In this document: piece after piece, positions 1 through 48,207 of the stretch
Numbering within the stretch: position 1 is the stretch's first letter
How the letters are laid out: the number at the start of each line of letters is the position of its first letter
Origin: a bacterium
GTDB lineage: Bacteria; UBA8248
Assembly: GCA_965204535.1 (NCBI GenBank)
Contig: CBDBEV010000001.1
Span: forward strand, 1,408,001-1,472,000
DNA: 64,000 nucleotides
Direction: 5' to 3'
The notes under the pieces: generated by a model
What the model was told of the DNA's origin: nothing
Databases searched by the model: none
What the model saw: the letters and a program-made list of their open reading frames with translations, nothing else
Program-made: the position numbers and the translations under genes

Positions 1-5
1 TTGTC

Positions 6-1518
6 GGGCCTGTTGAAAAACCCCTGGTTTTGTGATCGTATGGATGTATCCCCCCTCGCCCGAGATGGGAGATTCCCCGATGTTGGACCGCAAGAGGCGC
101 GGGCAGATGGAATTGTTCGTGGCCGGTTCGCTGGAGCAGTTGATTCCCGAAGATTACATATTGTTCCGGGTGAACCGCGTACTGGATTTGAGCTGGCTGC
201 GCGAGGAGGTGGCGGAGTGTTATTGCGCGGACAACGGTCGACCGGGGATCGACCCCGAAGTGGTGGTTCGGTTGATGCTGGCGGGCCTGCTGCTGGGCCA
301 CGTGCACGACCGGCATCTGCTTCGCGAGGCGCAGGTGAACCTGGCGATCCGGTGGTTCATCGGTTACGAGCTGCACGAGGAGTTGCCGGATCATTCGAGC
401 CTGACGCGGATTCGCCAGCGGTGGGGGGAGGCGCGGTTCAAGGAGATATTGCGCCGCACGGTTCAGGCGTGCCTGGAGGCGCAGGTGGCGAAGGGGGAAG
501 TGGTTCACCTGGACGCGTCTTTGATACGCGCGGACGTGAGTTGGGAGAGTCTGGCGGCGCGCCACGCGGAGAAGGTGGTGCGGGAGAACGACTCGGCGGA
601 TGAGACGGGGAAGAAGGGCGGCGGGGGTTCGGGGCCGGTGAGCCGAACGGACCCCGACGCGCGCCTGGCGCGCAAGAGCGCTCGGGCGGGGTTCGAGCCG
701 AGCTACAAGCACCACGCGGTGGTGGACGATGAGCGGGGGGTGGTTCTCGACGTAGAGGTGACGGAGGGGACGTTGAACGAGCGGGAGATGATGGAGCCGC
801 AGTTGGATGCGGTTTGCGAGCTCACGGGTCGCGCGCCCGCGGTGGTGACGGCGGATTCGGGCTATGCGTACTCGAAGGTGTACGGCGCATTGGAGCGGCG
901 TGGCGTCGCCGCGGTGATTCCGGCGAAGAAGGAGCCTTCCCAGAGCCGTGTTCCGCTGCAGTTGTTCCGCTACGACGAGCGGCACAAGGTGGTGAAGTGT
1001 CCGGGCGGCAAGACGCTGCGCCCCCGGAAGGAGACGGAGCGGGGGCGCTACTATGGTTCGAGGACGCGCGATTGCGCGGGCTGCGCGCTGAGGTCGGATT
1101 GTCTTCCCAAGTCGCACACGAGCAGGACGGTGCTGGTTCCGCATGAGTATCCGGCGCTGTTGCGCGCGCGTCGGCGGCACGCGCGCCGGGGGGAGGAGGA
1201 GGGCCGGCTGTGGCGCCGCCACATGTCGCGTTCGGAGGGCTACCACGGCGAAGCGAAGAGTCGGCACGGACTGGCGCGGGCGGTGCGCCGGGGCCTTGCG
1301 AACATGAGGATCCAGGCCTACCTGACGGCGACTGCGGTGAACCTCAAGCGGCTCGCCGCCGCTGTTGCGGCGCGTTTATTCGCGCTCTGGAGGGCCTGGG
1401 CCGCCCGGAGACGCCGTCTGCGCGTTCCTCGCGGCCTCACGCGCCGATTGGGCTTCCTCTCCGCCGCTGCGTGAGCCGCCATACCTCCCGCTTCAAAACG
1501 GGGTTTTTCAACAGCCCC
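6..1518 (+). mobile_element. IS1182-family insertion sequence, copy 1 (1513 bp)
   Basis: TIRs GGGCCTGTTGAAAAACCCC (6-24) and GGGGTTTTTCAACAGCCCC (1500-1518); 5-bp TSD TTGTC at 1-5 and 1519-1523; single transposase ORF. Confidence 0.93.
80..1474 (+). CDS. IS1182-family DDE transposase
   Basis: DUF772-like N-terminus (GRPGIDPEVVVRLML...LPDHSSLTRIRQR), DASLIRAD, SRTDPDA, ADSGY, CxxC zinc motif, C-terminal EAKSRHGL..RRGL; ATG at 80 preferred over ORF-track start 32. Confidence 0.93.
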   Translation: MLDRKRRGQMELFVAGSLEQLIPEDYILFRVNRVLDLSWLREEVAECYCADNGRPGIDPEVVVRLMLAGLLLGHVHDRHLLREAQVNLAIRWFIGYELHEELPDHSSLTRIRQRWGEARFKEILRRTVQACLEAQVAKGEVVHLDASLIRADVSWESLAARHAEKVVRENDSADETGKKGGGGSGPVSRTDPDARLARKSARAGFEPSYKHHAVVDDERGVVLDVEVTEGTLNEREMMEPQLDAVCELTGRAPAVVTADSGYAYSKVYGALERRGVAAVIPAKKEPSQSRVPLQLFRYDERHKVVKCPGGKTLRPRKETERGRYYGSRTRDCAGCALRSDCLPKSHTSRTVLVPHEYPALLRARRRHARRGEEEGRLWRRHMSRSEGYHGEAKSRHGLARAVRRGLANMRIQAYLTATAVNLKRLAAAVAARLFALWRAWAARRRRLRVPRGLTRRLGFLSAAA

Positions 1519-1746
1519 TTGTCAGGGGGGTATGAAAAGGCGACGCCCGCCGCGGGTAGAGGGGCTTTTGTTTTTTCTTGCTCTCTGACAAGGGGGTCTT
1601 TCTTTTTTACCCCCCTGACAAGGGGGGGTAGGGGGGGTTGCCTTTATCCCCTGATAAGGGAGGTTGGGGGTCGAACGCGACCGGAGAGGGAGCGTTCGCT
1701 CCCTTGACAAAGACTTTCTCAACAACCCCCTCAAGGGGAAGTGAAT
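1519..1746. repeat. Right half of family-B REP-like palindrome, then an outer MITE right end and a family-A REP half
   Basis: TTGTCAGGGGGGTA...CCCCCTGACAAGGGGGGGTAGGGGGGGTTG matches 5573-5715 and 42485-42578; CAACAACCCC at 1720-1729 followed by CTCAAGGGGAAGTGAA. Confidence 0.8.
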
Positions 1747-1750
1747 TGCA

Positions 1751-2914
1751 TCATTCCCTTTCTTGCCGCTCCCTCAGGAACGCCCCCACTCTTTCGAGAC
1801 CGGCCTCGATGTTTTCGACCGAGTTGCAGTAGGAAAACCGAAGGAACCCCTCTCCACCCGGCCCGAAATCCGCTCCCGGCGCCACGGCCACGCCGGTGGC
1901 TTCGAGAATTTCTTTTGCCAGTTTCAGGCTGTCCGCCCCGTACGCGCGCGCATCGGCGAAGGCGTAGAACGCGCCCGTCGGCTCATGAAGCATTTTCAGG
2001 CCGATGTCCTCCAGGCGCGCGAGCATGATCTTGCGCCTTTCGTCATAAATCCCGCGCATGCGCTCCGCCTCGGGCACGCCGTCCTTGAGAGCGGCGATCG
2101 CCGCGTGCTGGACGAAGGAATTGGGCGACACGAAATAGTTTTGCTGCAGTATCTCCAGCGGACGGACGTATTCGGGAGGCACGATGAGATAGCCGACCCG
2201 CCAGCCCGTCATGGCGAAATACTTCGAGAAACCGTTGATGACGAAACAATCCTCCGTGAAGTGGAGCGCCGTGTATTCCGCATCCTCGTAGCTGAGTCCG
2301 TGATAAATCTCGTCCGAGACGATGGGAACTCCCAACTCGGCGAGCGCCGCCATGTCCCCTCGCGAGAGCGACGCGCCCGTGGGATTGGACGGCGAGTTGA
2401 TGAGGATGGCCCTGGTGTTCTCGGTGATGCGCTCGCGGACGGCCTCGGCCTTGAGCGCGAAGCCGTGCTCCGCATGGGTAGGGACCCGCACGGGTCTCCC
2501 GCAGGCGGAGAGGATGAAAGCCGGGTAGCAGGCGTAGTGGGGGTCTGAAATGACAATCTCATCGCCCGCATCCACGAGAACGGAGAAGAGCATCAGCAGG
2601 CCCGGGCTCGTGCCGTTCGTCACCACCACGCGTTCGGGAGATACGGATACGCCGTATTTGTGGTTGTAGAATTCCGCGATCGCCTCGCGCAGTTCGGGAA
2701 TCCCCAGAGCTGCCGTGTAGTGGGTGTGGCCGGCGCGCAGGGCGTCCTCGGCGGCGCGGGTGATGACCCCGGGCGTATCGAAATCGGGCTCTCCCACTTC
2801 CAGGTGGATAACATCGCGGCCCTGCGCCTCCAGTTGATGGGCGCGCTCCATGATGTCCATCACCAGGAAGGGCTTGATGCCCGAGATGCGCGCCGGGATG
2901 GAAAATTCCTTCAT
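1751..2914 (-). CDS. PLP-dependent aminotransferase class I/II (aspartate aminotransferase-like)
   Basis: GEPDF, NSPSNPTG, SDEIY, NGFSKYFAMTGWRVG motifs; start MKEFSIP. Confidence 0.92.
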   Translation of the reverse strand: MKEFSIPARISGIKPFLVMDIMERAHQLEAQGRDVIHLEVGEPDFDTPGVITRAAEDALRAGHTHYTAALGIPELREAIAEFYNHKYGVSVSPERVVVTNGTSPGLLMLFSVLVDAGDEIVISDPHYACYPAFILSACGRPVRVPTHAEHGFALKAEAVRERITENTRAILINSPSNPTGASLSRGDMAALAELGVPIVSDEIYHGLSYEDAEYTALHFTEDCFVINGFSKYFAMTGWRVGYLIVPPEYVRPLEILQQNYFVSPNSFVQHAAIAALKDGVPEAERMRGIYDERRKIMLARLEDIGLKMLHEPTGAFYAFADARAYGADSLKLAKEILEATGVAVAPGADFGPGGEGFLRFSYCNSVENIEAGLERVGAFLRERQERE

Positions 2915-3115
2915 GTTTTTTGACCTTTTATGTTTCCAGTTGTTTTTTAAGTGGTTGCTCACCTGCAAGGCTAGTGGTAAAGTGCATTGAACTCAAGACG
3001 TTACACGGATTGATGAACTTTGAATAGGGAATCAGAGAATTTTCCACTCCGGTCTTGTTCCCTGTACGAGGACGGGGTTGCGCACAAATATGGTGGGTAA
3101 GAAGGAGGGAGTCCT

Positions 3116-3409
3116 TTGACGAAAATCGACATCATTAACCTCGTGTCGGACGATACGGGTCTCAGCAAAGTGAAGTCGGAAGAAGCGGTAGAGACGATCA
3201 TCCAGACCATCAAGGAATCCCTCCGCAGCGGCGAGTCGGTTATTCTAAGGCGCTTCGGTTCTTTTCAGGTGAGAACAAAGAACCCTCGCGTGGGGCGCAA
3301 CCCCAAGACGGGTCAGGAGGCGCCCATCAGCGCGCGCCGCGTCGTGCGCTTCAAGGCGGGCAAGCACTTCAAGGATGCGGTGAACGGCGCCGACGTGAGA
3401 TTTCATTGA
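3116..3409 (+). CDS. HU/IHF family DNA-binding protein
   Basis: FGSFQVR..GRNPKTG..FKAGK signature; SD GGAGG upstream of TTG start. Confidence 0.93.
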   Translation: MTKIDIINLVSDDTGLSKVKSEEAVETIIQTIKESLRSGESVILRRFGSFQVRTKNPRVGRNPKTGQEAPISARRVVRFKAGKHFKDAVNGADVRFH

Positions 3410-3430
3410 GCCGGTGATTCTCCCGGCCCC

Positions 3431-4471
3431 CTAGCTTATCAGCATGGCGTCCCCATAGCTGTAGAACCGGTATCCCTCATCAATCGCCTCCACGTATGCG
3501 CCCAGGATTTTCTCCCTGCCGGCGAACGCCGCCACGAGCATGAGCAGGGTCGAGCGCGGCAGGTGGAAATTCGTCAGCATCATGTCCACCAGGTGAAACC
3601 GAAAGCCCGGCCGGATGAACAGCCGGGTGCGGAACTCCCCCGCCTGTAGCGTCCGGCCTCGGGCGGCCGCCTCGATATGTGCGGATTCCAGCGCCCGGAC
3701 CACCGTCGTGCCCACGGCCAGGATTCGCCCGCCGCTTGCTTTCGCATCCTGGATCGAGGCGACGGTCTCTTCGGTGAGAATATAGCTTTCCGCCTCCATC
3801 TCGTGTTCTTCGATGTTTTCCGCCTGAACGGGCCGAAACGTCCCGGCGCCCACGTGGAGGGTGAGCCTCGCGATGCGCGCACCTGCGGCCGAGACCTCTT
3901 CGAGCAGCGTTTCGCTCAGGTGCAGGCCCGCCGTGGGCGCGGCGACCGCGCCGGGGTTTCGGGCGAAGACGGTCTGGTAGCGCTCCTTGTCGACAGCCTC
4001 GGCGCTTCTTTCCAGATAGGGCGGGATCGGCATCTCCCCGAAAGATTCCAGCCATTCGGTGAGGCCGTGCGAGGAGGAGAATTCGAGTTCTCTCTCAAGC
4101 CCCTGGGCCCCGAGCATGGCGCGGTGCGCCTCGTCGAAGACGATCCTTTCGCCTTCGGGCAGGGGGCGGTTGGCGCGCGCCATGGCGCGGAATTTTCCGG
4201 GCGAAAGTTGCTTGAGCAGCAAGACCTCCACCCGGCCGCCGCTCTCCCGCCTGCCGTGAATCCGCCACGGGTTCACCTTCGTGTCGTTGATGACGACCAG
4301 ATCCCCCGGACGCAAATGACGCGGCAGGTCGGTGACCTGGAGATGCGCGAGCGCTTCGCCCTCTCTGGAGAGGTGGAGGAGCCTCGCGTCTCCGCGCCTC
4401 GGCGGCGGGTAGCGGGCGATGAGGTTTTTGGGTAGGTGGTAGTCGAAGTCATCGAGTTTCATGCGCTTCAC
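3431..4471 (-). CDS. queA: S-adenosylmethionine:tRNA ribosyltransferase-isomerase
   Basis: DFDYHLP, NDTKV, RYQTVFA, AAPTAGLH, TNFHLPRSTL, YRFYSYGDAM motifs. Confidence 0.97.
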   Translation of the reverse strand: MKRMKLDDFDYHLPKNLIARYPPPRRGDARLLHLSREGEALAHLQVTDLPRHLRPGDLVVINDTKVNPWRIHGRRESGGRVEVLLLKQLSPGKFRAMARANRPLPEGERIVFDEAHRAMLGAQGLERELEFSSSHGLTEWLESFGEMPIPPYLERSAEAVDKERYQTVFARNPGAVAAPTAGLHLSETLLEEVSAAGARIARLTLHVGAGTFRPVQAENIEEHEMEAESYILTEETVASIQDAKASGGRILAVGTTVVRALESAHIEAAARGRTLQAGEFRTRLFIRPGFRFHLVDMMLTNFHLPRSTLLMLVAAFAGREKILGAYVEAIDEGYRFYSYGDAMLIS

Positions 4472-4506
4472 GCTCTATCCGGTTCCCTTCGGAACGATGC
4501 CCGAAG

Positions 4507-5340: not shown

Positions 5341-5572
5341 GAGGCGAAATCACCATGTTGGAAAATCTGGAATTTACGGCTCGCCATCGCCGGGTGCAGC
5401 TTTCGTCCATGCTGCCCGACGCAGGCCATGCCCTTTCCTCCTCATAGCACGAAGCGGCCCGGCCTGTCATAAACGAATCGGGTGCGGCGCTGAGTTTCGG
5501 GTGAATCGGTGGTTGCGAATGAATATTCTGCGCTTTTTGCAGGTAGAGGGGATACCCCTCTCGACTGGAAAA

Positions 5573-5715
5573 GCAACCCCCCCTACCCCCCCTTAACAGG
5601 GGGGTAAAAAAGAAGCCCCCGACAAGGGGGAGATATAAAAAGGCGATGCCCACCGCCGATAGAGGGGCTTTTGTTTTTTCTTGCCCCCCTGTTAAGGGGG
5701 GGTAGGGGGGGTTGC
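5573..5715. repeat. Family-B REP-like long palindrome, uninterrupted (empty-site) copy
   Basis: GCAACCCCCCCTACCCCCCCTTAACAGGGGGG ... CCCCCCTGTTAAGGGGGGGTAGGGGGGGTTGC inverted arms; degenerate MITE end follows near 5735-5751. Confidence 0.85.
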
Positions 5716-5825
5716 CTTTATCCCCTGAAAAGGAGACTTTTCCAAAACCCCTTCGGCCGCCGGATTCGCGCCTGAGTCCTTCGGGCGGTGTCATCCGCCT
5801 TGTTTTGGCGTAATATGGACGCGCT

Positions 5826-12050: not shown

Positions 12051-12368
12051 GGGGCTGTTGAAAAAGCCCGTACAGGGTCCTGCAAGTAGAGGGTTTGTAG
12101 GGACAGGCCCCCGTGCCTGTCCCTGCGAAGCGCAACCACGGAGATGGATATATCCGATACGGGCGGCCACGGGGGGCCGCCCCTACGGGTGAATGCGGTT
12201 TTTGATCGTCATTCCGGCGCATGTTGGTTGACGCCGGCATATGCCAGAACGGCGATCTAAATCGCACCTCTCGCAATGATGAAGAATCAAACGTAGGGAC
12301 AGGTCGCGACCTGTCCCTACACCCCCCTCGCGTCGAACCCTCACTCCTCGGACTTTTCCAACAAACCC
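12051..12368 (+). mobile_element. IS1182-derived MITE carrying GTAG-type REP doublets
   Basis: GGGGCTGTTGAAAAAGCCC left end, degenerate right end TTTTCCAACAAACCC; colinear with 47831-48126; internal GTAGGGACAGGCCCCCGTGCCTGTCC, GGGCGGCCACGGGGGGCCGCCCCTAC, GTAGGGACAGGTCGCGACCTGTCCCTAC. Confidence 0.82.
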
Positions 12369-16460: not shown

Positions 16461-16945
16461 GTTCACTCTCCCCTTGAGGATTGTTGCCGACCGACGAGAA
16501 AGAGATTCACTCCCCCTGAAGCGGCCGCTGAAAAAGCCTGTTTTCGTGATTCGGTGCTTGGAGCCATCCTACGAGAGAGCAAATTCACTCCCCCCTTGAG
16601 GGGGAGTCGAAGAGCTGAGGGCTTAAGCCCGACAGCGATTCGGTGGGGGGGACAATACGGACTGGCGATAAAACGCATTTTACCCCCCACCGATTCAGCC
16701 TTCGCACAAACCGCTCGGCTTCATCGACTCCCCCTCAAGGGGGGAGTGAACTTCAACCTTCGAGATTGTTCGGCGTAGGGACAGGCCCCTGTACCTGACC
16801 TTGCGAGGGACAACCACGGGGGGCAGGACAACCCAAAAGGGTTGTCCCTACGGTTTTGGATTCCCCAAAGGCCTGTATTGCAGATTGCCGGAATGACGGC
16901 AATACGGATCTCGATTGTAGGGGCGGTTCGCGAACCGCCCCTACA
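16461..16945. repeat. REP mosaic including intact family-A element (16584-16750) and GTAG REPs
   Basis: TTCACTCCCCCTTGAGGGGGAGTCGA...TCGACTCCCCCTCAAGGGGGGAGTGAA arms; GTAGGGACAGGCCCC.. and GTAGGGGCGGTTCGCGAACCGCCCCTAC; degenerate MITE end near 16523. Confidence 0.85.
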
Positions 16946-17047
16946 GGTTCACTTCGATACGCGGAGAGGTGTAGCCGGACAGGCACAGTGGCCTGTCCGG
17001 GGACCCATATGTCCGCCCAATAGGCTACGAAACCTGCACCACTTAAA

Positions 17048-23112: not shown

Positions 23113-23385
23113 GCCGCCTGGAGGTTGTTGAAACAGTCCCGGAACTCTGGATTTGTCGTATGTAACCGACCTACGAGAGAGAAAAATCACTCCCCCTTTG
23201 AGGGGCATGGCCAAGGAAGAAGGAAGTAAATTCACTCCCCCCTTGAGGGGGAGTCGATGAAGCCGAGCGGTTTATGCGAAGGCTGAATCGGTGGGGGGTA
23301 AAATGCGTTTTATCGCCATTCCGAATCATACCCCCCACCGATTCGGTTTCGGGTTTACACCCTCACCTCATCGACTCCCCCTCAA

Positions 23386-24901
23386 GGGGCTGTTGAAAAA
23401 CCCCTGGTTTTGTGATCGTATGGATGTATTCCCCCTCGCCCGAGATGGGAGTTCCGGAGATGTTGGACCGCAAGAGGCGCGAGCAGATGGACTTGTTCGT
23501 GGCCGGCCCGCTGGAGAAGTTGATTCCCGAAGATCACATATTGCGCCAGGTGGACCGCGTACTGGATTTGAGTTGGCTTCGCGAGGAAGTGGCGGAGTGC
23601 TATTGCGCGGACAACGGTCGACCGGGGATCGACCCGGAAGTGGTGATCCGGTTGATGCTGGCGGGCCTGCTGCTGGGCTACGCGGAGGATCGCCGCCTGC
23701 TGCGCGAGGCGCAGGCGCATCTGGCGGTCCGGTGGTTCATCGGGTACAGGCTGGACGAGGATTTGCCGGATCATTCGAGCCTGACGCGTATCCGTCAACG
23801 CTGGGGGGAGGAGCGGTTCAAGGAGATATTTCGGCGCACGGTTCAGTCTTGCGTGGAGGCGAAGGTGGCGAAGGGAGAAGTGGTTCACATGGACGCGTCT
23901 TTGATACGCGCGGACGTGAGCTGGGAGAGTCTGGCGGAGCGCCACGCGGAGAAGGTGGTGCGGGAGAACGACTCGGAGGATGAGACGGGGAAGAAGGGCG
24001 GCGGCGGGGGTTCGGGTCCGGTGAGCCGAACGGACCCCGACGCGCGCCTGGCGCGCAAGAGCGCTCGGGCGGGGTTCGAGCCGAGCTATAAGCACCACGC
24101 GGTGGTGGACGACGAGCGTGGGGTGGTTCTCGACGTAGAGGTGACGGAGGGGACGTTGAACGAGCGGGAGATGATGGAGCCGCAGTTGGATGCGGTTTGC
24201 GAGCTCACGGGTCGCGCGCCCGCGGTGGTGACGGCGGATAGTGGTTATGCGTATTCGAAGGTGTACGGCGCATTGGAGCGTCGGGGGGTCGCCGCGCTGA
24301 TACCGGCGAAGAAGGAACCCACCCAGAGCCGGGTGCCGTTGCAACTGTTCCGCTACGACGAGCGGAATGAGGTGGTGAAGTGTCCGGGGGGCAAGACGCT
24401 GCGCCCCCGGAAGGAGACGGAGCGGGGGCGCTGGTATGTATCGAGGACCCGCGATTGCGCGGGTTGCGCGCTCAAGGCCGATTGTCTGTCGGCGTCTCGC
24501 ACGAGCAGGGCGGTTCTGATTCCGCACGAGTATCCGGCGCTGTTGCGCGCGCGCCGTCGCCACGCGCGCCGGGGGGAGGAGGAGGGCCGGCTGTGGCGCC
24601 GCCACATGTCGCGTTCGGAGGGCTATCACGGCGAGGCGAAGAGTCGGCACGGACTGGCGCGGGCGGTACGCCGGGGTCTTGCGAACGTGAAGATCCAGGC
24701 CTACCTGACGGCGACTGCGGTGAACCTCAAGCGGCTCGCCGCCGCTGTGGCCGCGGGTTTATTCGCTCTGTGGCGGGCCTGGGCCGCCCGGAAACGCCGA
24801 ATGAGCGCATATCGCGGCCTCACGCGCCGATTGGGCTTCCTCTCCCAGGCCGCGTGAGCCGCCATACATCCCGCTTCAAAACGAGGTTTTTCAACAGCCC
24901 C
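23386..24901 (+). mobile_element. IS1182-family insertion sequence, copy 2 (1516 bp)
   Basis: TIRs GGGGCTGTTGAAAAACCCC / GAGGTTTTTCAACAGCCCC; 5-bp TSD CTCAA at 23381-23385 and 24902-24906; interrupts family-A REP 23231-24918. Confidence 0.94.
23460..24857 (+). CDS. IS1182-family DDE transposase (copy 2)
   Basis: Colinear close paralogue of 80-1474 with one extra Gly. Confidence 0.93.
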   Translation: MLDRKRREQMDLFVAGPLEKLIPEDHILRQVDRVLDLSWLREEVAECYCADNGRPGIDPEVVIRLMLAGLLLGYAEDRRLLREAQAHLAVRWFIGYRLDEDLPDHSSLTRIRQRWGEERFKEIFRRTVQSCVEAKVAKGEVVHMDASLIRADVSWESLAERHAEKVVRENDSEDETGKKGGGGGSGPVSRTDPDARLARKSARAGFEPSYKHHAVVDDERGVVLDVEVTEGTLNEREMMEPQLDAVCELTGRAPAVVTADSGYAYSKVYGALERRGVAALIPAKKEPTQSRVPLQLFRYDERNEVVKCPGGKTLRPRKETERGRWYVSRTRDCAGCALKADCLSASRTSRAVLIPHEYPALLRARRRHARRGEEEGRLWRRHMSRSEGYHGEAKSRHGLARAVRRGLANVKIQAYLTATAVNLKRLAAAVAAGLFALWRAWAARKRRMSAYRGLTRRLGFLSQAA

Positions 24902-25076
24902 CTCAAGGGGGGAGTGAATGGCAATCTCAAGGGAAGAGTGAATCCCGACCTTCTGGATTATTCACCGTAGGGACAGGTCGCGACCTCGGACAGGCCCCTG
25001 TGCCTGTCCGTTACAGATGCGATGCGGTTTTGATCGTCATGACGGCGGTGGTCAATTCCGAGCAGGGAGGGCTTTT

Positions 25077-25475
25077 TCAACAATCCCCGCCGGAAAGGGG
25101 CTTGCTGACTTCGATCAAGAACCCGTTCGGGTCCTTCAGCATGAACATGCGCACGCCCCAGGGGGCGTCGAGTGGCGGGAAAACGGTTTCCGCGCCTTTT
25201 TCCACGAGGACATCATAGGCGCGGTCCACGTCCTCGGGCGAGAGCGTGACGACGACGCCCGAGCCCCTGGGTTCCCGGAGAGGTTCGAGATTCCACTTGC
25301 GCATCTCCTCATCCGGAATCGGCGCGTGGATGACGAGCGAGGTTCCTCCCACGTCATATCGCACGTGTTGTTTCTCCCGGCTCGCTTCTTTCAGTCCCAG
25401 CGTTTCGGTATAAAAACGACACGACGCCTCGTAGTCTTTGGTGATGAGAAAAACGGCGGGCAGCGATTCGAACAA
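25077..25475 (-). CDS. VOC/glyoxalase family protein
   Basis: FYTETLGL, DVDRAY, PWGVRMFMLKDPNGFLIE; stop lies inside a MITE TIR. Confidence 0.88.
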   Translation of the reverse strand: MFESLPAVFLITKDYEASCRFYTETLGLKEASREKQHVRYDVGGTSLVIHAPIPDEEMRKWNLEPLREPRGSGVVVTLSPEDVDRAYDVLVEKGAETVFPPLDAPWGVRMFMLKDPNGFLIEVSKPLSGGDC

Positions 25476-25519: not shown

Positions 25520-26203
25520 ATGCCCCATCCCCTGGTCGAGCTGAAAGAAGTATCCAAAACCTACGTTGCGGGCGACGTGCTCATCCACGCGCTCAAAGAC
25601 GTGAACTTCCGGGCGGAACAGGGCGAGTTTATCACGGTTTCGGGCCCGAGCGGCTCGGGCAAGAGCACGTTTCTGCACCTGATGGGCGCGGTCGATGCGC
25701 CCTCGAGCGGCGAGGTGTTTCTGGGCGGACGCGAAATATCGCGCCTGAGTGATGAGGGCCTGAGCGAAATTCGCCGCAAAGAGGTGGGCTTCATCCATCA
25801 GTTCTTTCACCTCATGCCGACGATGACGGCTTATGAAAACGTCGCCCTGCCGCTCCTGCTTCAGGGCCGGAAGCGCGCCGAGATCAAGGAGATGGCCGAA
25901 AACGCCCTGGCGCGCGTGGGGCTTGAGAACCGGATGCGGAGCTTCCCGAGGCAACTCTCGGGCGGCGAGATGCAGCGCGTGGCCGTTGCGCGCGCCGTCA
26001 TCCACAAACCCCGTCTCATCCTCGCCGATGAGCCGACGGGAAACCTCGATTCCGAAAACTCGCAAAATGTCCTGGAACTCGTCGCAGAACTCCACAAAGA
26101 AGATGGTTTTACGGTCGTCATGGCGACGCACGACCAGATGCCCATACGCTACGCCACCCGAAAAGTCGGTATCACCGATGGCCGTCTGGAGGAGGGTTGT
26201 TGA
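25520..26203 (+). CDS. ABC transporter ATP-binding protein (LolD/MacB-like)
   Basis: [34 protein letters not shown]. Confidence 0.95.
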
Positions 26204-26474
26204 AAAAGACCTGGCTTCGTGATTCGGTGTATGTAATCGACCGGGGAGGGAATATGTACCCACCCGCGTTTGGTGGCGTAGGGGCGGCCCCCCGTGGCCG
26301 CCCGTATCGAAGATGTCTACCCTCGTGGTTGTCCTGCATCAGGACAGGCACGGGGGCCTGTCCCTGCGGTGTACAATTCGATGATCGGGATGCCCTCCCC
26401 AAAAGGGGTTGTTGCCTTTCCAATCGAGAGTGTTCACCGTCATTCCGGGCGAGAAGGGGTTTTTCAACAACCCC
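26193..26474. mobile_element. IS1182-derived MITE (282 bp) with REP-doublet cargo
   Basis: AGGGTTGTTGAAAAA / TTTTTCAACAACCCC ends; exact 5-bp TSD GGAGG (26188-26192, 26475-26479). Confidence 0.9.
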
Positions 26475-36796: not shown

Positions 36797-36951
36797 GAGA
36801 ACTCCTTAATACCATATGAGTGTCGTGTCATCCTTTGTTTACCGGGCAAGTCGGGGTCATCCTGTCATAAAGGCGGCTTTTTGAAAAACTTATGCAGGGA
36901 AGCCCTGTGGAGTTGTTGAAAAAGCCATCCTCGGTTGTGATTGACCACCAC

Positions 36952-37242: not shown

Positions 37243-38067
37243 ATGAAAAAAGCGCTTTGCATCGCTCTTCTCGTTTGTTTTCTGGCTGCGCCGGTCGTCG
37301 TTTCCGCCAAATGCTCGCCCGGTCTGGTGCGCCACATGCCCTTCAGGCGAGCGTTTCCCGTATCTTACGTCTATGTAGCGAAAGCCCCGCGCCAAATCAG
37401 CATCCAGTGGTTCGGCCACGCGTTTTTCCGCATCATCTCGCCGGGGGGAATCCGGGTCGTTACCGATCCGTTCTCCCCTCATCGGGGCTATCCCATCCCC
37501 AAGACCAGTCCCCACGTGGCCACCGCGAGCGAGGCGGCGATGAACCACAGTTCCGTCGAGGTGCTGGGCGGAAACCCCGTCGTCTTGCATGGCGTGCTCG
37601 GCTACGGAGAGAAATGGAACGAGGTGGATTACCGGATAGGCGACGTGCGCATCCGCAACGTGCCCATTGTGCAGGGCATGGGTAGTGACGATTTCGACGC
37701 GGGCGAATCGAAGGCTTCTTCTTTTCTCTTCGAGACGGGTGGGCTTTGTATCGCCCACTTGGGGGATCTGGGCTCGCCCATGAACCCCGAACAGTTCAGG
37801 AGGCTGGGGAAGATTCACGTGGCCCTGGCGATCATCTCGGACCCCGGCGCGATGAACCCCAGAGTGATGGCGGATTTCGTCCGCAGACTCGGCCCCAACG
37901 TCGCGATTCCGATGGACGTCCGCTCGCTCGAGGAATTGGACGTATTTCTCGGCGCTTTCAGGCGCGTCCGCAAGCTGGAAAGCGACACCTACGTCTTCAG
38001 CCGCAGGACGCTTCCGCGTCCGACCGAGGTGGTGCTCCTCAAGCACAAGGGGTGGGAGTGGAAGTAG
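37243..38067 (+). CDS. Secreted MBL-fold protein (beta-lactamase superfamily)
   Basis: Signal peptide; IQWFGHAFFRI, VTDPF, IAHLGDLG; canonical HxHxDH is degenerate. Confidence 0.8.
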   Translation: MKKALCIALLVCFLAAPVVVSAKCSPGLVRHMPFRRAFPVSYVYVAKAPRQISIQWFGHAFFRIISPGGIRVVTDPFSPHRGYPIPKTSPHVATASEAAMNHSSVEVLGGNPVVLHGVLGYGEKWNEVDYRIGDVRIRNVPIVQGMGSDDFDAGESKASSFLFETGGLCIAHLGDLGSPMNPEQFRRLGKIHVALAIISDPGAMNPRVMADFVRRLGPNVAIPMDVRSLEELDVFLGAFRRVRKLESDTYVFSRRTLPRPTEVVLLKHKGWEWK

Positions 38068-38091
38068 GGATATCTTGGGTACCTTCCTGCC

Positions 38092-38430
38092 CGTCATTCC
38101 GGCGAATGCCGGAATCCAGGGAATTTGTCTTTCGCCTTTCGTTTTTTGCCGTCATGCCTGACCCATGAGAGAGGCGATGAACCGTCGCCTGTTATGCGCT
38201 CTCATCGGCTCTGGATTCCGGCAATCCCTCCCTCCTCGGTCGGCATTGATTGCCGGAATGACGACACAAGGCGGTTGGTAGGGACAGGCCCCTGTGCCTG
38301 TCCGACAATGGATAACCACGGGGGGTTGTCCCTACGGGGCAACACCAACCTAAGGATACGCATTCCTGTCAGGGGAGGGATCGTGGTTTTGTAGGGGCGT
38401 CCATATACGGACACATAGGTCCGCCCCTAC
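38092..38430. repeat. Cluster of CGTC- and GTAG-type REP pairs between convergent genes
   Basis: CGTCATTCCGGC..GCCGGAATCCAG / CTGGATTCCGGC..GCCGGAATGACG; GTAGGGACAGG..TGTCCCTAC; GTAGGGGCG..CGCCCCTAC. Confidence 0.82.
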
Positions 38431-38486
38431 GAAAAATTCGGTTTTTCGGGAATGCGTTATCAAGAGGTGGAAACGCGCCCGCCGGA

Positions 38487-42085: not shown

Positions 42086-42117
42086 CCCGCAGCCCGGCCT
42101 CTCGCCCCGATAGCATG

Positions 42118-42154: not shown

Positions 42155-42248
42155 GGGGAGAAAATCGGGCGGCAACTGTTCGGGGAATGGATTTGGGGGG
42201 GGAATCGCATACATGATTCGACCGCAGGGGACATTGCCTTTACCGCCC

Positions 42249-42808
42249 TTGTCGGGGTTGTTGAAAAAGCCTTTGTCGAAGGAGCAACCCCCCCTACCCC
42301 CCCTTGTCAGGGCTGTTGAAAAAGTCCTGCAATGCCGGAATGACGGCAATGGGATTACGCCTTGGCGAAGGGAGTGTAGGGGCCGCATATATGCGGCCCG
42401 TCGTTGGAAGGCAAAAAGGCCGGGTCGCATATATGCGACCCCTACACAAGAGATCCGCCCGATGAAGGCTTTTTCAACAACCCCTTGTCAGGGGGGTATA
42501 AAAAGGCGATGCGCCCCCGCCGGCAGAGGGGGCTTTGCTTTTTCTTGCCCCCTGACAAGGGGGGGTAGGGGGGGTTGGTTTTGTAGGGACAGGCCCCCGC
42601 GCCTGTCCGGGGTCGCGCTACCAAAACACAATCGCTCGCTCCTCGCTCATGTCAAACCCATCTTTATGGGAGCGCTGCCGACCGTAGGGGCGGTTCGCGA
42701 ACCGCCTCTACAACGGGCGCGGTATTCGCTCGTCATTCCGGCGGTGGTCAATTCCAAGCGAGAAGAGGCTTTTTCAACAACCCCCTAAGGGACTTCTTCA
42801 ACAGCCCC
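42249..42808. mobile_element. Nested MITE/REP complex (outer left end 42254; right ends at 42784 and 42808)
   Basis: Two left and three right IS1182-type TIRs around a family-B palindrome and GTAG REPs. Confidence 0.75.
42309..42484. mobile_element. Inner IS1182-derived MITE (176 bp)
   Basis: AGGGCTGTTGAAAAAG / CTTTTTCAACAACCCC; exact TSD TTGTC (42304-42308, 42485-42489); cargo GTAGGGGCCGCATATATGCGGCCC / GGGTCGCATATATGCGACCCCTAC. Confidence 0.9.
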
Positions 42809-43561: not shown

Positions 43562-43599
43562 GTGAATCTCAAGGAAAAAGAGGGGAGTCCGACCCCCAG

Positions 43600-43707
43600 G
43601 GGGCTGTTGAAAAAGTTCCCTTTTCAGGGGGTAGAGGGGGTTGGTTTATGGGGTTTCCCTTTCAAGGGGGTTGCCGTTACCCTCTCAGGGGGTTTTTCAA
43701 CAATCCC
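43600..43707. mobile_element. Minimal MITE (108 bp)
   Basis: GGGGCTGTTGAAAAAG / GTTTTTCAACAATCCC; interior resembles the reverse complement of about 44768-44825; no clean TSD. Confidence 0.7.
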
Positions 43708-43747
43708 GGAAAGGGGGGGGCAACAACCCGCTGGGCAGGGACCCGCC

Positions 43748-44554
43748 TCACCCCGCGATGTCTTCGCCTCCGTCGACGCGAATCAGATCGCCCGTCATCC
43801 ACTGGGTGCCGGAGGCGGCGAGCGTCGCGATGGCGTCGGCCACTTTCTGCGGCGTCGTCAGTTCCCCGTGCGGGTTGATTTTCTTCGTGCCCTCTATCAT
43901 CTCGGCGTTGCCCGGGATCTTGCGGAGCGCGGGCGTGTCCGTGACGCCGGCCTGGATGCTGTTCGCCGTGATGCCCCTGGGCGCCAGTTCGACGGCGAGC
44001 TGGCGGATGTGGCTCTCGAGCGCGGCTTTGGCCGCCGACACGGCGCCGTAGGTTTTCCAGATGCGGTGTCCGCCCGCGCTCGTCATGGCGTAGATGCGGC
44101 CCCCGAAGCCCATGAGGCCGCGCCGCACGAGCGCCTGGGTCCAGTAGACGAGGCTGTTCGCCATGACGTCGAGCGTCATCTCGAGCTGTCTGGGGGTGAT
44201 GGCGTCTTTCTCCTCCTCGGCGATGTAGGGCTTGAGCGTGCCGAAGGCCAGGCTGTGCAGGAGGATGCGCACCGCGCCCTCCGCGTTCTCGCCCAGGTGC
44301 TCCTCGATTTGATCCAGAACGCTCTCGCGCTCCTCGTGGCCCGCCGCGTTCACGTTGAAATAGAGCGATTCGGCGCCGTTCGTCCTGATCTGCTCCCGAA
44401 TGCGCTCCACGTTGGGCAGCGTGGCTTTCCTGTCGAGGTGGACGCCCAGGATGTTCACGCCCAGGCCCGAGAGCTTGAGCGCGTTCGCCTCTCCAAAGCC
44501 GCTGCTCGCTCCCAGTATGAGCGCCCAGCTTCCCGCCAGATCCGAGTTCGACAC
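43748..44554 (-). CDS. SDR oxidoreductase, enoyl-ACP reductase (FabL-like)
   Basis: LILGASSGFG, YGAVSAAKAALE, ANSIQAGVTDTPAL, RVDGG. Confidence 0.85.
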   Translation of the reverse strand: MSNSDLAGSWALILGASSGFGEANALKLSGLGVNILGVHLDRKATLPNVERIREQIRTNGAESLYFNVNAAGHEERESVLDQIEEHLGENAEGAVRILLHSLAFGTLKPYIAEEEKDAITPRQLEMTLDVMANSLVYWTQALVRRGLMGFGGRIYAMTSAGGHRIWKTYGAVSAAKAALESHIRQLAVELAPRGITANSIQAGVTDTPALRKIPGNAEMIEGTKKINPHGELTTPQKVADAIATLAASGTQWMTGDLIRVDGGEDIAG

Positions 44555-44729
44555 GTCTTTCTTCTCCTTTCGAGGCTGCGGTTCGTCGCGTTTTCATTGT
44601 TTATAGCACATCCGGGAGGGATTGGGGGTCAGCCCCGAGTGAGGAGGGAGGGGCTGCTTTTCCGGTCGAAAGGCAAGCGGAGCGGGACAGGGCCCGATAG
44701 TGCATAGGCGACCCCGTCTGCGGCGCAAG

Positions 44730-45341
44730 TGTAGGGGTCGCATATATGCGACCCTGGTTTTTTCGCCTCCCTGAAAGGGTAATGGCAACCCCCTTGAAAG
44801 GGGAATCCCATAAAGGCAACCCCCCTTACCCCCCCTTGTCAGGGGTCAAACGCGAGTGATGAACGAGCGTTTGCATGAGCCATTGACGAGAAACACATCG
44901 TCTTGCAAAACCTCCCTCTTCGGTCGGTTTTGACCCCTGACAAGGGGGGGGTGAATAAGTCTGCGCAGGACCCTGCAAATAGAAGGTTTGTAGGGACAGG
45001 CCCCCGTGCCTGTCCTGATGTGGGGCGGCCACGGGGTCAGACATATATGTCTGACCCCTACGGGAGCCTTGTCGTTCGGGAATCACTCCCCCCTTGAGGG
45101 TCTGGCTTCCCGAGGGGAAAGCCAGACGATGAAGCCGAGCGGTTTGTGCGAAGGCTGACTCGGTGGGGGGTAAAATGCGTTTTATTGCCATTCCGAATTA
45201 TACCCCCCCACCGAATCGCTTTCGGGCTTACGCCCTCAGCTCTTCGTCTGGCTTTCCCCTCGGGAAGCCAGACCCTCAAGGGGGGAGTGATTACGGACTG
45301 GCGCGGTGGTTCTGTAGGGACAGGTCGCGACCTGTCCCTAC
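44730..45341. repeat. REP mosaic including variant family-A element 45081-45292
   Basis: GTAG REPs, family-B arms CCCCCCTTGTCAGGGG..CCCCTGACAAGGGGGGG, segment shared with MITE 12051/47831, family-A core shared with 16584-16750 and 23231-23385. Confidence 0.85.
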
Positions 45342-45714
45342 AGGATCGGCGGACAGGCGCGAGGGCCACGGACAGGCGCCGGGGCCTGCTCCCGCGCTCT
45401 CGGCCCGGATGCGCCCCGCCTCATCGCTTCCCTTCATCGCTCGCGCCTCCCGGGAGTGGCGGCAGGGAAAACGCGAAAATACACGAAAAAGGCATGAAAC
45501 CCCCAAAAAAGGATACAAAAGTAGGGCCGGCCATGATATTATTGATCGATCAAGTAAATGAATGTTCCACCTGAAGGGGAGGCGGACGGCCCCGTCGCGA
45601 AAAATCGCAATACCGGGAAGGGGGGATCAGGAAAATGAGACATCGCTCGAGGGGAGCCCGACGGGGCTTGCAAGCGGAGGCGGCTACGGTCCGTCATCCG
45701 AAGAAGAGGCCGGC

Positions 45715-45905
45715 ATGAGCTCCGGACGGCTGCCCGGCCGCCCCGACGGGCTCGCGCCGGGCCTCGTCCCCGCGGCGCCGGCTCGCCCTTTTCGCTGCCG
45801 GGCGCCTTCGCCTTGCTCGCCGCGTCCGCCTCCGCTGACGTGCTCGTCAGCGACGTCGAGCAGACACGGAGCAGCGCTCCCGATCTTTCGGGCAATCACG
45901 TCACG
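45715..45905 (+). pseudogene. Remnant 5' end of a large secreted protein (choice-of-anchor-R-like start)
   Basis: SD plus ATG at 45715; in a shifted frame GAFALLAASASA-DVLVSDVEQT resembles signal peptide plus VLVSNxGQ; no continuation. Confidence 0.4.
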
Positions 45906-46109
45906 ATCGGGCCTGACCACCGGAACCGACACCGGCGGTTGCACCCTGACGAGCATCGGGTTCGCCCGGGCACGGCGTCACGCTGCGCGGCGCGATTCTC
46001 TGGCAGGGCTCGTCGGCAACGCAGCGTACATGGCCCGAATCGCGAGGCAGGGTGCTGTCGCGCCGTGTCTGGTTTCAGGGCTCCAAATTCCAAATGAGGA
46101 GAAAGTAGC

Positions 46110-47606
46110 ATGAGGATAAACAGATACGCGATTGGACGGGCGGGGACCGCGCTGCTCGCGCTCGTCCTGGTTCTTGGGGGAACGCCGGCCCTGGCGAACT
46201 CCGACAAGATTTCGGACATTGACTTCGAGTTGTCGGTCAGTCCACATCATGAAGGAAAGCTCTATGACCGTCCGACCGCTGTCGGATACATTGTCTGGTG
46301 GCATCGGGAAACGGTTGAGGTGAGGGTCGTCGAGAATGGCCAGAACGTCATGGTATGGGTCGATACAGGTTCCGGGTTCAAGGAGGTGGCCGACCCCGCC
46401 AATCCCGGTACGTATCAAGTCCAGCTCAACCCGGCCGGCGAAGAAACCCTGTTCCAGGTCTGGGTGGAAGAGCGGATTACCAGGAACGGCAAACCGGTCG
46501 TCAGGTACCAGCCAGCCAATCTGGTCATCTACAGGATGCCGTCGCCCCAGGCGCGGGGCGAATCACCATCGGGCAACAAGGGTACGGATTCACCCCTGGG
46601 TGCGCTGCCGAAACCGGCGACGCCTACGGAATCGAACCCGCCCCCCGCTGAGCCGCCCGACGACCCGCCGGGCAGCGACTCTACGGACAGACCCTTGGGT
46701 GCGGCGCCGAAACCGGCGACGCCGACAACGCAGCCCGAGAGCCCGCCGCCGACGCAGCCCGACCCGGTACCGCAGACTTCACTCCAGTCGTCCACCGCCA
46801 CTCCGCGGACAGCCGCCGCACCTCCCGACGACTCCACGACGCCCAGAGAAGCGCTTGAACGCCTCGTCTCGTCATCGAACGCCGAGTTGAGAGCTGAAAC
46901 GCTCGACGGAAAAGCGAGTCTGTGGATGAGCCTGTGGGAGAGACCGGACGTTTTCCGCGGCCCGGGCATGCCCCGTCGCGAGTTGTCGAGCCTGACCGGA
47001 CTGTTCGAGTTGTCGAGCCTGACCGGACTGGAGGCAGGCGCCGAGGACAGCCCGCCACCGGAGTACGAGGACCTGGCGGACCGGCTCGGTGTTTCCCGGG
47101 CGTTCGCGGAAACTTCCAGGGCGTCAGAGGACGTGGAATTGAGCTACCTCCACTACGGCGGGTGGATGGACCACAGCTTCTTCTTCGTCAGCGGCGTCAC
47201 TGCTCGCGATCCTGCAACGGAGAAGGAATCGTTCGGGACGTTCCTCCACTCGATGGGGAATGCGACGGGCGCCAATCCGGTCTCCGGCGGCGCAACGTGG
47301 AAGGGCGCGATGGCCGGGTTCGACGTCAGCGACACCGCGGACAGGGGGAACCTCATCGAGGGCGATGCAACGGTCACCATCGACGACTTCGAGCAGCCGG
47401 TCGTCGACGTGGCCCTCACCGGTCTGCGCGACCGGAACGCCGACCGCGACCGGGCGTCGATCACCTGGGAGGGGGTGCCTCTGGCGGACGGAGCGTTCGC
47501 AAGCTCGGGGCTCCAGGGCCAGTTCTACGGGCCGGACCACGAGGAAGCGGGCGGGGTCTTTCTGCGGGACGGGATCAGCGGAGCCTTCGGCGCGAAGCGC
47601 CAGTGA
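46110..47606 (+). CDS. Secreted protein with Pro/Thr linker and C-terminal TbpB-like beta-barrel
   Basis: Signal peptide (ALA), YGGWMDHSFF, ATWKGAMAG, GQFYGPDHEEAGGVF..GAFGAKR terminus. Confidence 0.82.
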   Translation: MRINRYAIGRAGTALLALVLVLGGTPALANSDKISDIDFELSVSPHHEGKLYDRPTAVGYIVWWHRETVEVRVVENGQNVMVWVDTGSGFKEVADPANPGTYQVQLNPAGEETLFQVWVEERITRNGKPVVRYQPANLVIYRMPSPQARGESPSGNKGTDSPLGALPKPATPTESNPPPAEPPDDPPGSDSTDRPLGAAPKPATPTTQPESPPPTQPDPVPQTSLQSSTATPRTAAAPPDDSTTPREALERLVSSSNAELRAETLDGKASLWMSLWERPDVFRGPGMPRRELSSLTGLFELSSLTGLEAGAEDSPPPEYEDLADRLGVSRAFAETSRASEDVELSYLHYGGWMDHSFFFVSGVTARDPATEKESFGTFLHSMGNATGANPVSGGATWKGAMAGFDVSDTADRGNLIEGDATVTIDDFEQPVVDVALTGLRDRNADRDRASITWEGVPLADGAFASSGLQGQFYGPDHEEAGGVFLRDGISGAFGAKRQ

Positions 47607-47721
47607 GCCGATCCGGACCCCGCCCGCCGGCGCGGGCGGGTGGGGTCGCGCCGGCGGTGAAGGCGGACCCGGTCCTGGAGCCGGGGCTGCGGCCGGCGGA
47701 CGGTGCGCTGGTGCTGACCGG

Positions 47722-48207
47722 GGGGTTGTTGAAAAAGTCCTGATATCGTGATTCCACATATGGAGCCGACCATGGAGGAATGAAACCTTACTCCCCCCTT
47801 GCAGAGCGCCAACCAACCACTCCCCCTCAAGGGTCTGTTGAAAAAGCCCCTGAGGGACCTGCAAACAGAGGGTTCGTAGGGACAGGCCCCTGTGCCTGTC
47901 CGAGGTCCCTGCGGAGCGTAGCCACGGGGATGAACATATACGATGCGGGCGGCCCCATGGGGGTCAGGGCGGCCACAGGGGGCCGCCCCTACGGGAACAT
48001 TGCGGATCGAGGTGAAAGGACGACCAGACCCTCCCCGGCTGTATTCGTCCGTAGGGACAGGTCGCGACCTGTCCCTACACCCCCCTCACGTCGAACACTC
48101 ACTCATCGGGCTTTTTCAACAGACCCCTCAAGGGGGGAGTGATTTTTCTCTCTCGTCGGTCGGTTACATACGACAAATCCAGAGTTCCAGGCTTTTTCAA
48201 CAACCCC
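47722..48207. mobile_element. Outer MITE-like element containing a family-A hairpin
   Basis: GGGGTTGTTGAAAAAG / CTTTTTCAACAACCCC ends; no clean TSD. Confidence 0.65.
47831..48126 (+). mobile_element. Inner IS1182-derived MITE (296 bp) with REP cargo
   Basis: Perfect 19-bp TIR GGGTCTGTTGAAAAAGCCC; exact TSD CTCAA (47826-47830, 48127-48131). Confidence 0.92.

Follow-up and report, generated by a model that had tools for sequence, protein, structure and literature searches.

IS1182-family ends form long-lived shells around exchangeable REP cargo in a bacterial genome

The window that we analysed, a stretch of 64,000 nucleotides from the genome labelled G000, contains two insertion sequences (IS) of the IS1182 family together with many isolated copies of their ends. 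These ends pair around short non-coding elements, which we call shells, and the shells are often nested in one another. How do such nests form, and what becomes of their contents? The original prediction was that nesting is purely additive: a DDE transposase would mobilise cargo that carries its own landing pads and would spread REP hairpins without a RAYT. This interpretation is partly supported by our analysis of G000 and of its congeners and relatives (genomes with G labels and loci with L labels). The host is likely a sponge-associated member of a Nitrospinota-like genus.

The two copies in the window are indeed members of the IS1182 family. Their transposase ORFs (32-1474 and 23412-24857) both exceed the cut-off of the NCBIfam model NF033551 for IS1182 (341 and 348 bits; the cut-off is 270 bits) and contain the domains DUF772 and DDE_Tnp_1_6; the two copies are 91% identical. 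Each has a single ORF, terminal inverted repeats and a target duplication, and lies in a palindrome. A genome-wide scan identified 24 intact copies in G000. Four copies encode an identical transposase protein, which suggests recent movement and nothing further. All 24 intact copies lie in the loop of a hairpin of family A or family B, which have the form CCCCC(T)-loop-(A)GGGGG, as do 2 interrupted copies. The IS enters the loop and 4-6 bp are duplicated: the duplication is exact in 17 of the 24, and the remaining 7 have mismatched half-pads. None of the 24 intact copies targets a GTAG or CGTC REP, so the claim that the hairpins are the insertion targets stands for families A and B and fails for the other REPs. 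At each junction, the terminal GGGG or CCCC of the IS re-forms the hairpin (the re-formed stems fold, with weak z-scores), and back-to-back end pairs have spacers of 4-8 bp in 6 of 7 cases. Strict loop targeting, with the pad re-formed at each junction, makes this a clean system for IS1182 target choice.

Both copies in the window illustrate this. The first (6-1518, forward strand) lies in the loop of a family-B hairpin with TTGTC duplicated at 1-5 and 1519-1523, and at the orthologous site in G002 and G016 the B hairpin is uninterrupted. Around it is an outer shell, whose right part (1519-1729) holds the rest of the family-B unit and terminates in an outer right end at 1715-1729; its left end lies about 500 bp beyond the window (G000:C2:1407500). 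G002, G016, and G011 have the same outer junctions and differing interiors. The original prediction also placed the element ending at 1729 within a CTCAA hairpin; the element has no exact duplication, and an A half-hairpin is present on its right side alone. The second copy (23386-24901, forward strand) lies in a family-A hairpin loop with a CTCAA duplication. Both of its junctions re-form a CCCC-CTCAA-GGGG hairpin, which is uninterrupted in L007. It is nested in an outer shell (23121-25087; duplication CGCCTG/CGCCGG) whose site is empty in at least 13 relative loci. The left end of this shell, GAGGTTGTTGAAACA, is unique among the 627 ends of G000 and is also found in L003, where the interior is different, and in L007.

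The original prediction counted about 25 copies of the end in the window. We found 23 matches to the end motif at no more than 2 mismatches, where 0.17 are expected and 0 of 100 shuffles reach 23. Across G000 there are 627 ends (about 19 bp each) and 163 short shells bounded by such ends, and REP-type cargo is present in 160 of these shells. Their interiors are REP-like hairpins and not transposase remnants, as had been claimed: in the scan of G000, IS interior was found in 0 of 163 short shells, and for most ends the likeness to the IS stops after about 20-30 bp. Exact target duplications of 4-8 bp are present in only 34 of the 163, well above the permutation mean of 4.1 (maximum 12). Empty orthologous sites, which also support the original proposal, were found in relatives, with an overlap of 5-6 bp. 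The shells behave like MITEs, with ends in common with an autonomous IS, no coding remnant, target duplications and empty alleles, yet they do not form one MITE family with a fixed internal sequence. The largest clusters at 80% identity or more have 9 members, and 93 of the 163 have no full-length partner.

At least some of these shells seem to be mobile. Seven pairs among the 163 are at least 95% identical over their full length at unrelated loci, which indicates that some short shells moved recently together with their cargo, and would be consistent with mobilisation in trans by the transposase. All three exact 5-bp duplications that had been reported for the window were confirmed. A shell with GTAG cargo lies between an ABC ATPase gene and a permease gene (26193-26474, GGAGG duplication); its empty allele is a GCCGCC-TGGA-GGCGGC hairpin. 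The other two are inside nests, which are arranged as claimed, as is the nest at 23121-25087. In the five-end nest at 42254-42808, an inner element (42309-42484) lies in a B hairpin with a TTGTC duplication and is 98% like an element at G000:C2:1311984. In the nest at 47722-48207, an inner element with GTAG cargo (47831-48126) lies in an A hairpin (CTCAA duplication) within an outer shell; it is 99.7% identical to an element at G000:C2:487791 with different flanks. Contigs with unique flanks from the public runs X1 and X2, which may be from the source sample, cross four junctions (23121, 25087, 26193, and 26474) with 0 differences, and congeners have the same junctions, so misassembly of the nests is unlikely. 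(Some contig joints of this type appeared to skip the second IS copy, and these were rejected as derived from other repeat copies.)

We compared G000 with G002, G016, and G011 using unique flanks. Of 119 comparisons, which share loci and lineages and so are not independent, 96 have an end at the same junction. In 52 of these 96, or 38 of 69 when each distinct end is counted once, the homologous stretch reaches no further than 25 bp into the shell. Over positions 1-15 of these 52, the identity is 0.79-1.0, and from position 20 it is at chance level. The old ends are kept and homology is lost at base 15-21. Non-consensus end variants are common to the orthologs in 23 of 37 comparisons (2.9 expected; permutation mean 3.9, maximum 11), and old variants are retained as far in as positions 11-13. 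Furthermore, 10 of 31 complete shell pairs do not share any interior 12-mer even though their flanks are 88-98% identical, and 6 of these 10 are comparisons with single-contig assemblies. For example, the shell at 12051-12368, with GTAG and CGTC cargo, has no interior 12-mer in common with G002, G016, or G011. Among the matches listed, this site is empty in L008-L010, L012, L013, L015, L019, and L026, whereas L002, L004, L007, and L017 retain its junctions around interiors that differ. Similarly, the left junction of 26193-26474 is kept in at least 9 relative loci with mostly different interiors, and relatives have other cargo at the right junction of 5572-5751 (a family-B unit, then a decayed right end at 5737-5751). 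(The left anchors of the 47722 site, and those of the first IS site in several relatives, gave no usable alignment.) The shells are thus long-lived and their cargo is exchangeable, unlike in a uniform MITE family, and the relatives show that the contents at a given gene boundary change faster than the flanking genes diverge.

The cargo repeats are associated with nuclease genes of their own. G000 encodes a RAYT (L001:1453-2049) that is above the PF01797 cut-off, although under that of NF047646 (63 vs. 80 bits). It is a Y1 HUH gene framed by GTAG REPs, which lie on both sides and inside, as in a REP-RAYT system (REPtron). G000 also encodes a small stand-alone GIY-YIG protein (a 106-aa ORF, PF01541) with inverted CGTCATTCCGGC repeats flanking both sides, which is the NTS-ssnA-NTS arrangement of Ssn systems, and the same CGTC-framed arrangement is found in L234, L235, and L238. 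Finally, a DUF559 gene in G000 is framed by B repeats, and A repeats frame a DUF559 gene in congeners. Thus, three nuclease genes of G000 are each framed by their own cargo repeat. About half of the GTAG and CGTC copies in G000 are away from any end. (In a separate scan, the pattern used for GTAG also fits a portion of family B, and the 126 counted there is therefore too high.)

We propose that fixed end pairs have their cargo replaced by nested insertion into cargo hairpins followed by collapse of the doubled ends, and we give this reading a probability of about one half. The cycle begins with steps seen in the sequence: an IS enters the loop of an A or B hairpin and 4-6 bp are duplicated, its terminal GGGG/CCCC re-forms the hairpin, and back-to-back ends with spacers of 4-8 bp occur. 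As gene context shows, A and B are the terminal repeats of DUF559 cassettes, GTAG those of the RAYT, and CGTC those of the Ssn-type GIY-YIG gene; the repeats would have originated from these nucleases rather than from the IS. Shells would move in trans with their cargo, as near-identical copies with duplications suggest, and amplify REPs and pads; this step is the positive feedback of the original prediction. It agrees with the location of the intact A and B pads in G000, of which 323 of 428 are on the inner side of an end; pure accumulation misses the replacement of interiors. (IS copies are not significantly enriched within shells over pad availability: 21 of 24 IS vs. 323 of 428 pads, p = 0.22.) Old ends persist at orthologous shells, with homology lost at base 15-21. 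Slippage or short-homology recombination between two ends in direct repeat, one of them old and the other nested and new, would delete the old interior and leave an orphan half-hairpin, and events on both sides would replace the interior wholly.

Intact nests that retain their inner duplication occur in G000 and would fit as intermediates of this cycle. Where loci have three ends and no inner duplication, an orphan half-hairpin is found at the inner doubled end in 17 of 25 and at the outer end in 4 of 25. A strict duplication test of the outer ends of these loci gave 2 of 25, which is not above chance (permutation mean 0.9) and lends the cycle no support. Other observations count against it: complete replacement (10 of 31) requires two collapses, or changes in both lineages, and the retention of old variants up to positions 11-13 leaves little room for the crossover.

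The main rival is copying from another shell. A cut inside a shell, made by the transposase or by the RAYT, Ssn, or DUF559 nuclease at cargo hairpins, would be repaired from the interior of another shell via the 19-bp ends and REP modules. We consider this possible but rather unlikely. It would explain the sharp switch point at the inner edge of the end and the full replacement in 10 of 31 shells. Potential donors exist, as an end-anchored paralogue of at least 50 bp is present elsewhere in G000 for 33 of 38 swapped ends, and the three hairpin-linked nuclease genes could supply the cut. Precise replacement of P elements, with gap repair through the P ends, has been described (PMC3887531): there too the site is kept, the contents are replaced, and terminal repeats serve as the homology. 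The P-element case is eukaryotic and experimental, whereas gap repair as the route here is putative. A homology of 15-20 bp is short for two distant loci to recombine by a RecA-type process. Also, only one side has changed at many loci, and nests that are still intact and orphan half-pads occur often, both as predicted by collapse. Insertion followed by collapse and copying from another shell have an identical end product, and no direct trace separates them.

A broader form of this idea, which we hold only tentatively and think a shade less probable, is that the 19-bp ends are exchange sites of a natural, genome-wide swapping of cassettes. The transposase, or a REP nuclease with repair, would draw on one common pool of hairpin modules to rewrite the interiors of hundreds of permanent shells between genes. 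If so, this would be a bacterial counterpart of P-element replacement, would link a DDE transposase with three hairpin-nuclease families, and would keep REP families alive after the loss of their own enzymes.

Alternatively, the transposase might target ends, as in IS30, joining incoming ends or adjacent deletions beside a resident end, with a slip that removes the extra end. Five same-direction end pairs are only 24-27 bp apart, including the right ends of the 42254-42808 nest (42770-42784 and 42794-42808, spaced 24 bp). For IS30, the targeting of ends together with sequence conversion is an established property (PMC9333248), and replacement of stem-loops is described for IS1272, of the IS1182 family (PMC5678879). 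However, just 5 of 100 same-direction pairs have such a short spacing, IS30 joins outside the end and not at its inner edge, and none of the 24 IS copies is at the inner edge of an end. We consider this route improbable.

Purely additive nesting, with REPs spread without RAYT-type enzymes, has a similarly small chance of being the full account. In its favour, the single-contig genome G011 has 408 GTAG REP matches and 386 ends and no RAYT by family or protein query; G002 has 155 CGTC matches and no Ssn hit; G000 has 164 intact A pads, yet only a B-type DUF559 gene was found; and, among 18 congeners, genomes with more ends also have more REPs (rho about 0.9, with kin that are not independent). 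On the other hand, RAYT-like matches, some of them partial or with stops, are present in 13 of the 18 congeners as well as the RAYT in G000, and G007, which has neither ends nor an IS1182 match, carries a RAYT, an Ssn-like gene, and 107 CGTC and 63 GTAG REP matches. The nucleases that appear to be absent may be recent losses or assembly gaps, and the Pfam search for RAYTs was weak, as the protein query gave hits in four genomes that it had not picked up. Also, interiors are replaced and not merely added to. Thus, the nuclease genes of G000 and the REPs in the IS-free G007 weaken the claim that no RAYT is needed. Another reading is that each species acquired its own short elements independently, at hairpins that act as hot spots in all of them, as the small hairpins at empty alleles and the reported reuse of one hairpin target by IS1272/TnSha1 (PMC4923244) might suggest. 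It is largely refuted and very improbable, because rare end variants are common to orthologous sites (23 of 37 vs. 2.9 expected) and the AAACA variant, seen in 1 of 627 ends, recurs in L003 and L007.

Several parts of the proposed insertion-and-collapse cycle have precedents. Hairpin targeting is already known for IS1182: some members target palindromes, according to a review cited in PMC5678879 and PMC4923244. IS1272/TnSha1 also encodes a DDE transposase of this family, is bounded by short inverted repeats, and inserts into hairpins. As described in those sources, IS1272 deletes the stem-loop without a duplication, whereas the element here leaves a 4-6 bp duplication at the loop, is confined to two particular repeat families, and is accompanied by non-autonomous shells in the hundreds. 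In PMC5678879, a pathway that duplicates the loop is also drawn, as a model. MITEs of bacteria and archaea (Correia, RUP, ERIC, MaeMITE) are described as non-coding, with ends of a resident IS, target duplications, and nesting, and MITEs partnered with IS1182 occur in Methanosarcina acetivorans (PMC3184786, PMC3852290). In contrast, the shells are not homogeneous (only 7 pairs at 95% or more among 163), and foreign REP interiors are exchanged at fixed loci. IS1397, IS621, and IS1594 insert into repeated palindromes, and BIME/NIME repeats form mosaic intergenic clusters (PMC3184786); in our case, IS ends delimit the mosaics, and the targets are themselves part of the cargo. In GTAG REP-RAYT and CGTC REP (NTS)-Ssn systems, the same tagged palindromes frame a small nuclease gene in inverted orientation (PMC3733652, PMC11893778), but here they ride within shells of an unrelated DDE element. 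The A and B hairpins resemble BoxC and intrastrand triplex motifs in the pattern of C and G runs alone (PMC4666352); they frame DUF559 genes and, in contrast to those motifs, are the sole landing pads of the intact IS. We did not find such a turnover cycle described for bacteria in the literature. The spread and turnover of REP mosaics is usually tied to RAYT alone, and here the brackets supplied by a DDE element are stable, and it would also offer REPs another way to move. Should hairpins between genes influence mRNA stability or termination, then cargo turnover would be a steady source of regulatory change.

We also considered whether a shell has captured a gene. An exact GAGGA duplication surrounds an amidohydrolase gene at G000:C1:1142485-1143981, but capture is not shown, because the gene is also found next to this left flank in G002, G003, G016, and in G008, where no end is present at that site. 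A 20-bp collapsed solo end with a duplication was seen once (L253) and in 0 of the 227 unpaired ends of G000, so we rejected it as a general feature. Within the window, REP clusters in which no IS end was found lie at 16509-16950 (A, GTAG, and CGTC) and at about 38064-38440 and 44731-45350, and an unpaired left end (36909-36923, forward strand) precedes a CGTC doublet. Finally, the 108-bp shell at 43600-43707 has the same junctions in G012, where they enclose a full B unit, which implies that the copy in the window is a deletion derivative.

The window spans C2:1408001-1472000 of the genome under study (4.56 Mb in two contigs, C1 and C2), which contains 24 intact and two interrupted copies of IS1182. 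Both transposase ORFs in the window are IS1182 transposases according to family profile searches, as expected, and the 19-bp terminal motif of the element (the "end") is indeed repeated in the window (23 matches versus 0.17 expected). Genome-wide, we found 627 ends (a reversed-sequence control gave 9), which form 200 pairs: 24 IS copies, 163 elements of under 1 kb, and 13 larger shells, or end-bounded elements. (There were 25 IS-sized pairs, one of which is not an IS.) Conservation beyond the core of the end runs out after four G's. The target duplication is best fit by 5 bp, with 4 and 6 bp also observed, and exact duplications are kept by 17 of the 24 IS copies and by 34 of the 163 short elements (permutation mean 4.1). 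The original prediction that ends pair into short elements with target duplications holds above chance, but most of the short elements have no exact duplication. The three duplications and the nests (one end-bounded element inside another) that it quoted are present in the window sequence, and it was right that the interiors are REP-like rather than transposase remnants: REP-type modules occur in 160 of the 163 short elements, and IS interior occurs in none of them.

All 24 intact IS copies lie in the loop of a hairpin from family A (CCCCC-TCAA-GGGGGG) or family B (CCCCCT-TGTC-AGGGGG and variants), which confirms that hairpins are the insertion targets, and the orthologues of occupied hairpins in relatives are uninterrupted. 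The GGGG/CCCC termini of the IS thus rebuild a small stem around the duplicated loop at each junction (with weak folding z-scores); spacers of this type, 4–8 bp long, separate the ends in 6 of 7 back-to-back pairs. Palindrome targeting is already known in the IS1182 family (excerpts of PMC5678879 and PMC4923244). Three tandem copies lie within 5 kb at C1:164611-169664, partly linked via re-formed junction hairpins, and a congener has a tandem trio (G002:C1:3567714-3572448) at the orthologue of window site 42254-42808. The genome under study also has a second transposase in multiple copies (14 places, all with the same score; e.g., C1:743827-744999). Its protein is 25% identical to that of IS1182, and two of its copies lie within IS1182 elements and interrupt them.

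Window sites 12051, 23121, and 26193 are empty in many relatives, as the original prediction called for. In other relatives, ends occupy the identical junction but enclose something else (an A, B, GTAG, or CGTC module, or one of another type; GTAG and CGTC are REP families). The left end at 23121 is a variant that is present once among the 627 ends, and a compared locus (L003) carries this variant, with an interior that diverges from base 21. We then extended the comparison to congeners (0.8 Mb of G002, 0.4 Mb of G016, and 0.4 Mb of G011) for those ends whose flanks are unique, 358 of 627. An end was at the same junction in 96 of 119 orthologous comparisons, and in 52 of these 96, homology was gone within 25 bp (identity 0.79–1.0 over positions 1–15 and chance level from 20). 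In 37 cases the end had a non-consensus base, and 23 of the orthologues had it too (2.9 expected, permutation maximum 11), or 16 of 29 by distinct ends; orthologous ends therefore descend from a single insertion. Among 35 closed-shell comparisons, the shell was in both genomes in 31, empty in 2, and other in 2. Interior 12-mers in common were none in 10 of the 31 shell pairs, under a quarter in 19, and half or more in 6, against a flank median of 0.72. In 6 of the 10 pairs with none, the partner is a single-contig assembly, which argues against short-read chimeras as the source of swapped interiors. The replacement interiors are ordinary members of the pool: for 33 of 38 swapped ends, the genome under study contains an end-anchored paralogue.

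The predicted self-nesting IS1182/MITE/REP system is real, but its interpretation was correct only in part; shells persist while their cargo of hairpin and REP modules is exchanged. The component parts are all known, judging by hairpin targeting in IS1182 and by excerpts on IS1182-partnered MITEs (PMC3852290), REP-targeting IS elements and mosaics (PMC3184786), RAYT and CGTC repeats (PMC3733652), Ssn systems (PMC11893778), and BoxC-type motifs (PMC4666352). In the full texts searched, mainly open-access papers other than the main IS reviews, there was no account of IS-end shells that outlast the exchange of their REP cargo.

We propose, with a probability of about one half, that shells turn over by nested insertion into a cargo pad (an A or B hairpin) and then deletion between the doubled ends. 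An element that landed in a pad within a shell would double both the left and the right end, each pair being a direct repeat. If the stretch between two doubled ends were then deleted, the old outer end would stay, now leading into new contents and an orphan half-pad (half of a pad hairpin). Deletion between short repeats that flank hairpins is common. In the genome sequence, three-end loci outnumber balanced two-deep nests (37 vs. 11), and an orphan half-hairpin is at the inner doubled end in 17 of 25 informative loci versus 4 of 25 for the outer end. Counting against this, duplications on the outer ends of three-end loci are not above chance, and old end variants are retained up to position 13. 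A break inside the shell, with the interior then copied from another shell, would explain two-sided swaps more simply, and its end products would be identical to those of insertion and deletion; we consider such copying, for which P-element replacement offers a comparison (PMC3887531, in part), less likely, though it is the main rival. It is quite improbable that the transposase targets ends, as is known for IS30 (an excerpt of PMC9333248), which would fit five end pairs spaced 24–27 bp apart.

Each of the four cargo families frames a nuclease gene. A RAYT gene, which the original prediction did not require, is present (C1:983506-984099, minus strand; L001:1453-2049) and is framed by GTAG REPs, which are also read in frame within its coding sequence. 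RAYTs of several congeners have similar in-gene REPs. A GIY-YIG gene of 106 aa (C2:927607-927825, minus strand; L082:1414-1734) lies between CGTC REPs, and Ssn, as described in part of PMC11893778, has the same arrangement of CGTC-type repeats around a small GIY-YIG gene. The flanks of this gene look the same as RAYT flanks in G005, G016, and G018; one site appears to be taken by different REP-nuclease cassettes across genomes (loci L082, L241, L217, L219, L220). Family B frames a DUF559 gene (C2:1232016-1237568; L081), with IS1182 copies inserted in the flanking hairpins to either side; another IS interrupts one of these copies. In congeners, family A frames another type of DUF559. The genus has at least two DUF559 subtypes, each with its specific hairpin family: A-type cassettes with hairpins on both sides (L224, L228), A-like arrays (L223, L225, L226), and B-type cassettes (L229, L231). 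The A-type cargo unit corresponds to the two ends of the DUF559 cassette minus the gene. A fifth cargo family, a CTCA[CT]CCTGAG...TCGAAGG hairpin, is in 20 of the 163 shells (L004, L007, L017, L249, L250; also window 50783).

Do the REPs depend on the IS, as expected if a DDE transposase spreads them? Of the GTAGGGACAGG matches, 148 of 306 are not close to the inside of an end, and the same holds for 137 of 294 CGTC matches. Furthermore, congener G007 has 107 CGTC and 63 GTAG matches and no match to the end motif or to IS1182; therefore, REPs do not need IS1182. Other results do favor spread by the IS: 323 of 428 intact A/B pads are on the inner side of an end; one A pattern and one B pattern gave no match in any of the three genomes without ends that were searched for them; end and REP counts are correlated across 18 congeners (rho = 0.92 and 0.90, with kin not independent); G011 has the most GTAG REPs, yet RAYT was not found in it; and seven pairs of cargo-bearing elements at unrelated loci are at least 95% identical. 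REPs are likely made by other enzymes and then amplified by the IS system.

Close relatives of one window protein carry the database labels Nitrospinota, Nitrospinaceae, or simply bacterium. Public runs that contain part of this DNA include sponge metagenomes, one of which (X4) contains a relative, so the organism likely lives in association with sponges. Window positions 48207-64000, unlike the first 48 kb, have no end motif at up to 2 mismatches and almost no REPs, and may be a recently acquired island. Genes for short, membrane-anchored helical proteins that are rich in repeats and match nothing in Pfam (C1:689230-689823, about a dozen paralogous places, and L001:2400-2699) often adjoin REP clusters, and one is inside a shell in common with G011. 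Near the RAYT gene, repeated GC-rich units with ATCACGAGGCCAGAGGACTCAAC (C1:980700-981300) lie 5' of a secreted-protein gene and are possibly structured RNA leaders.
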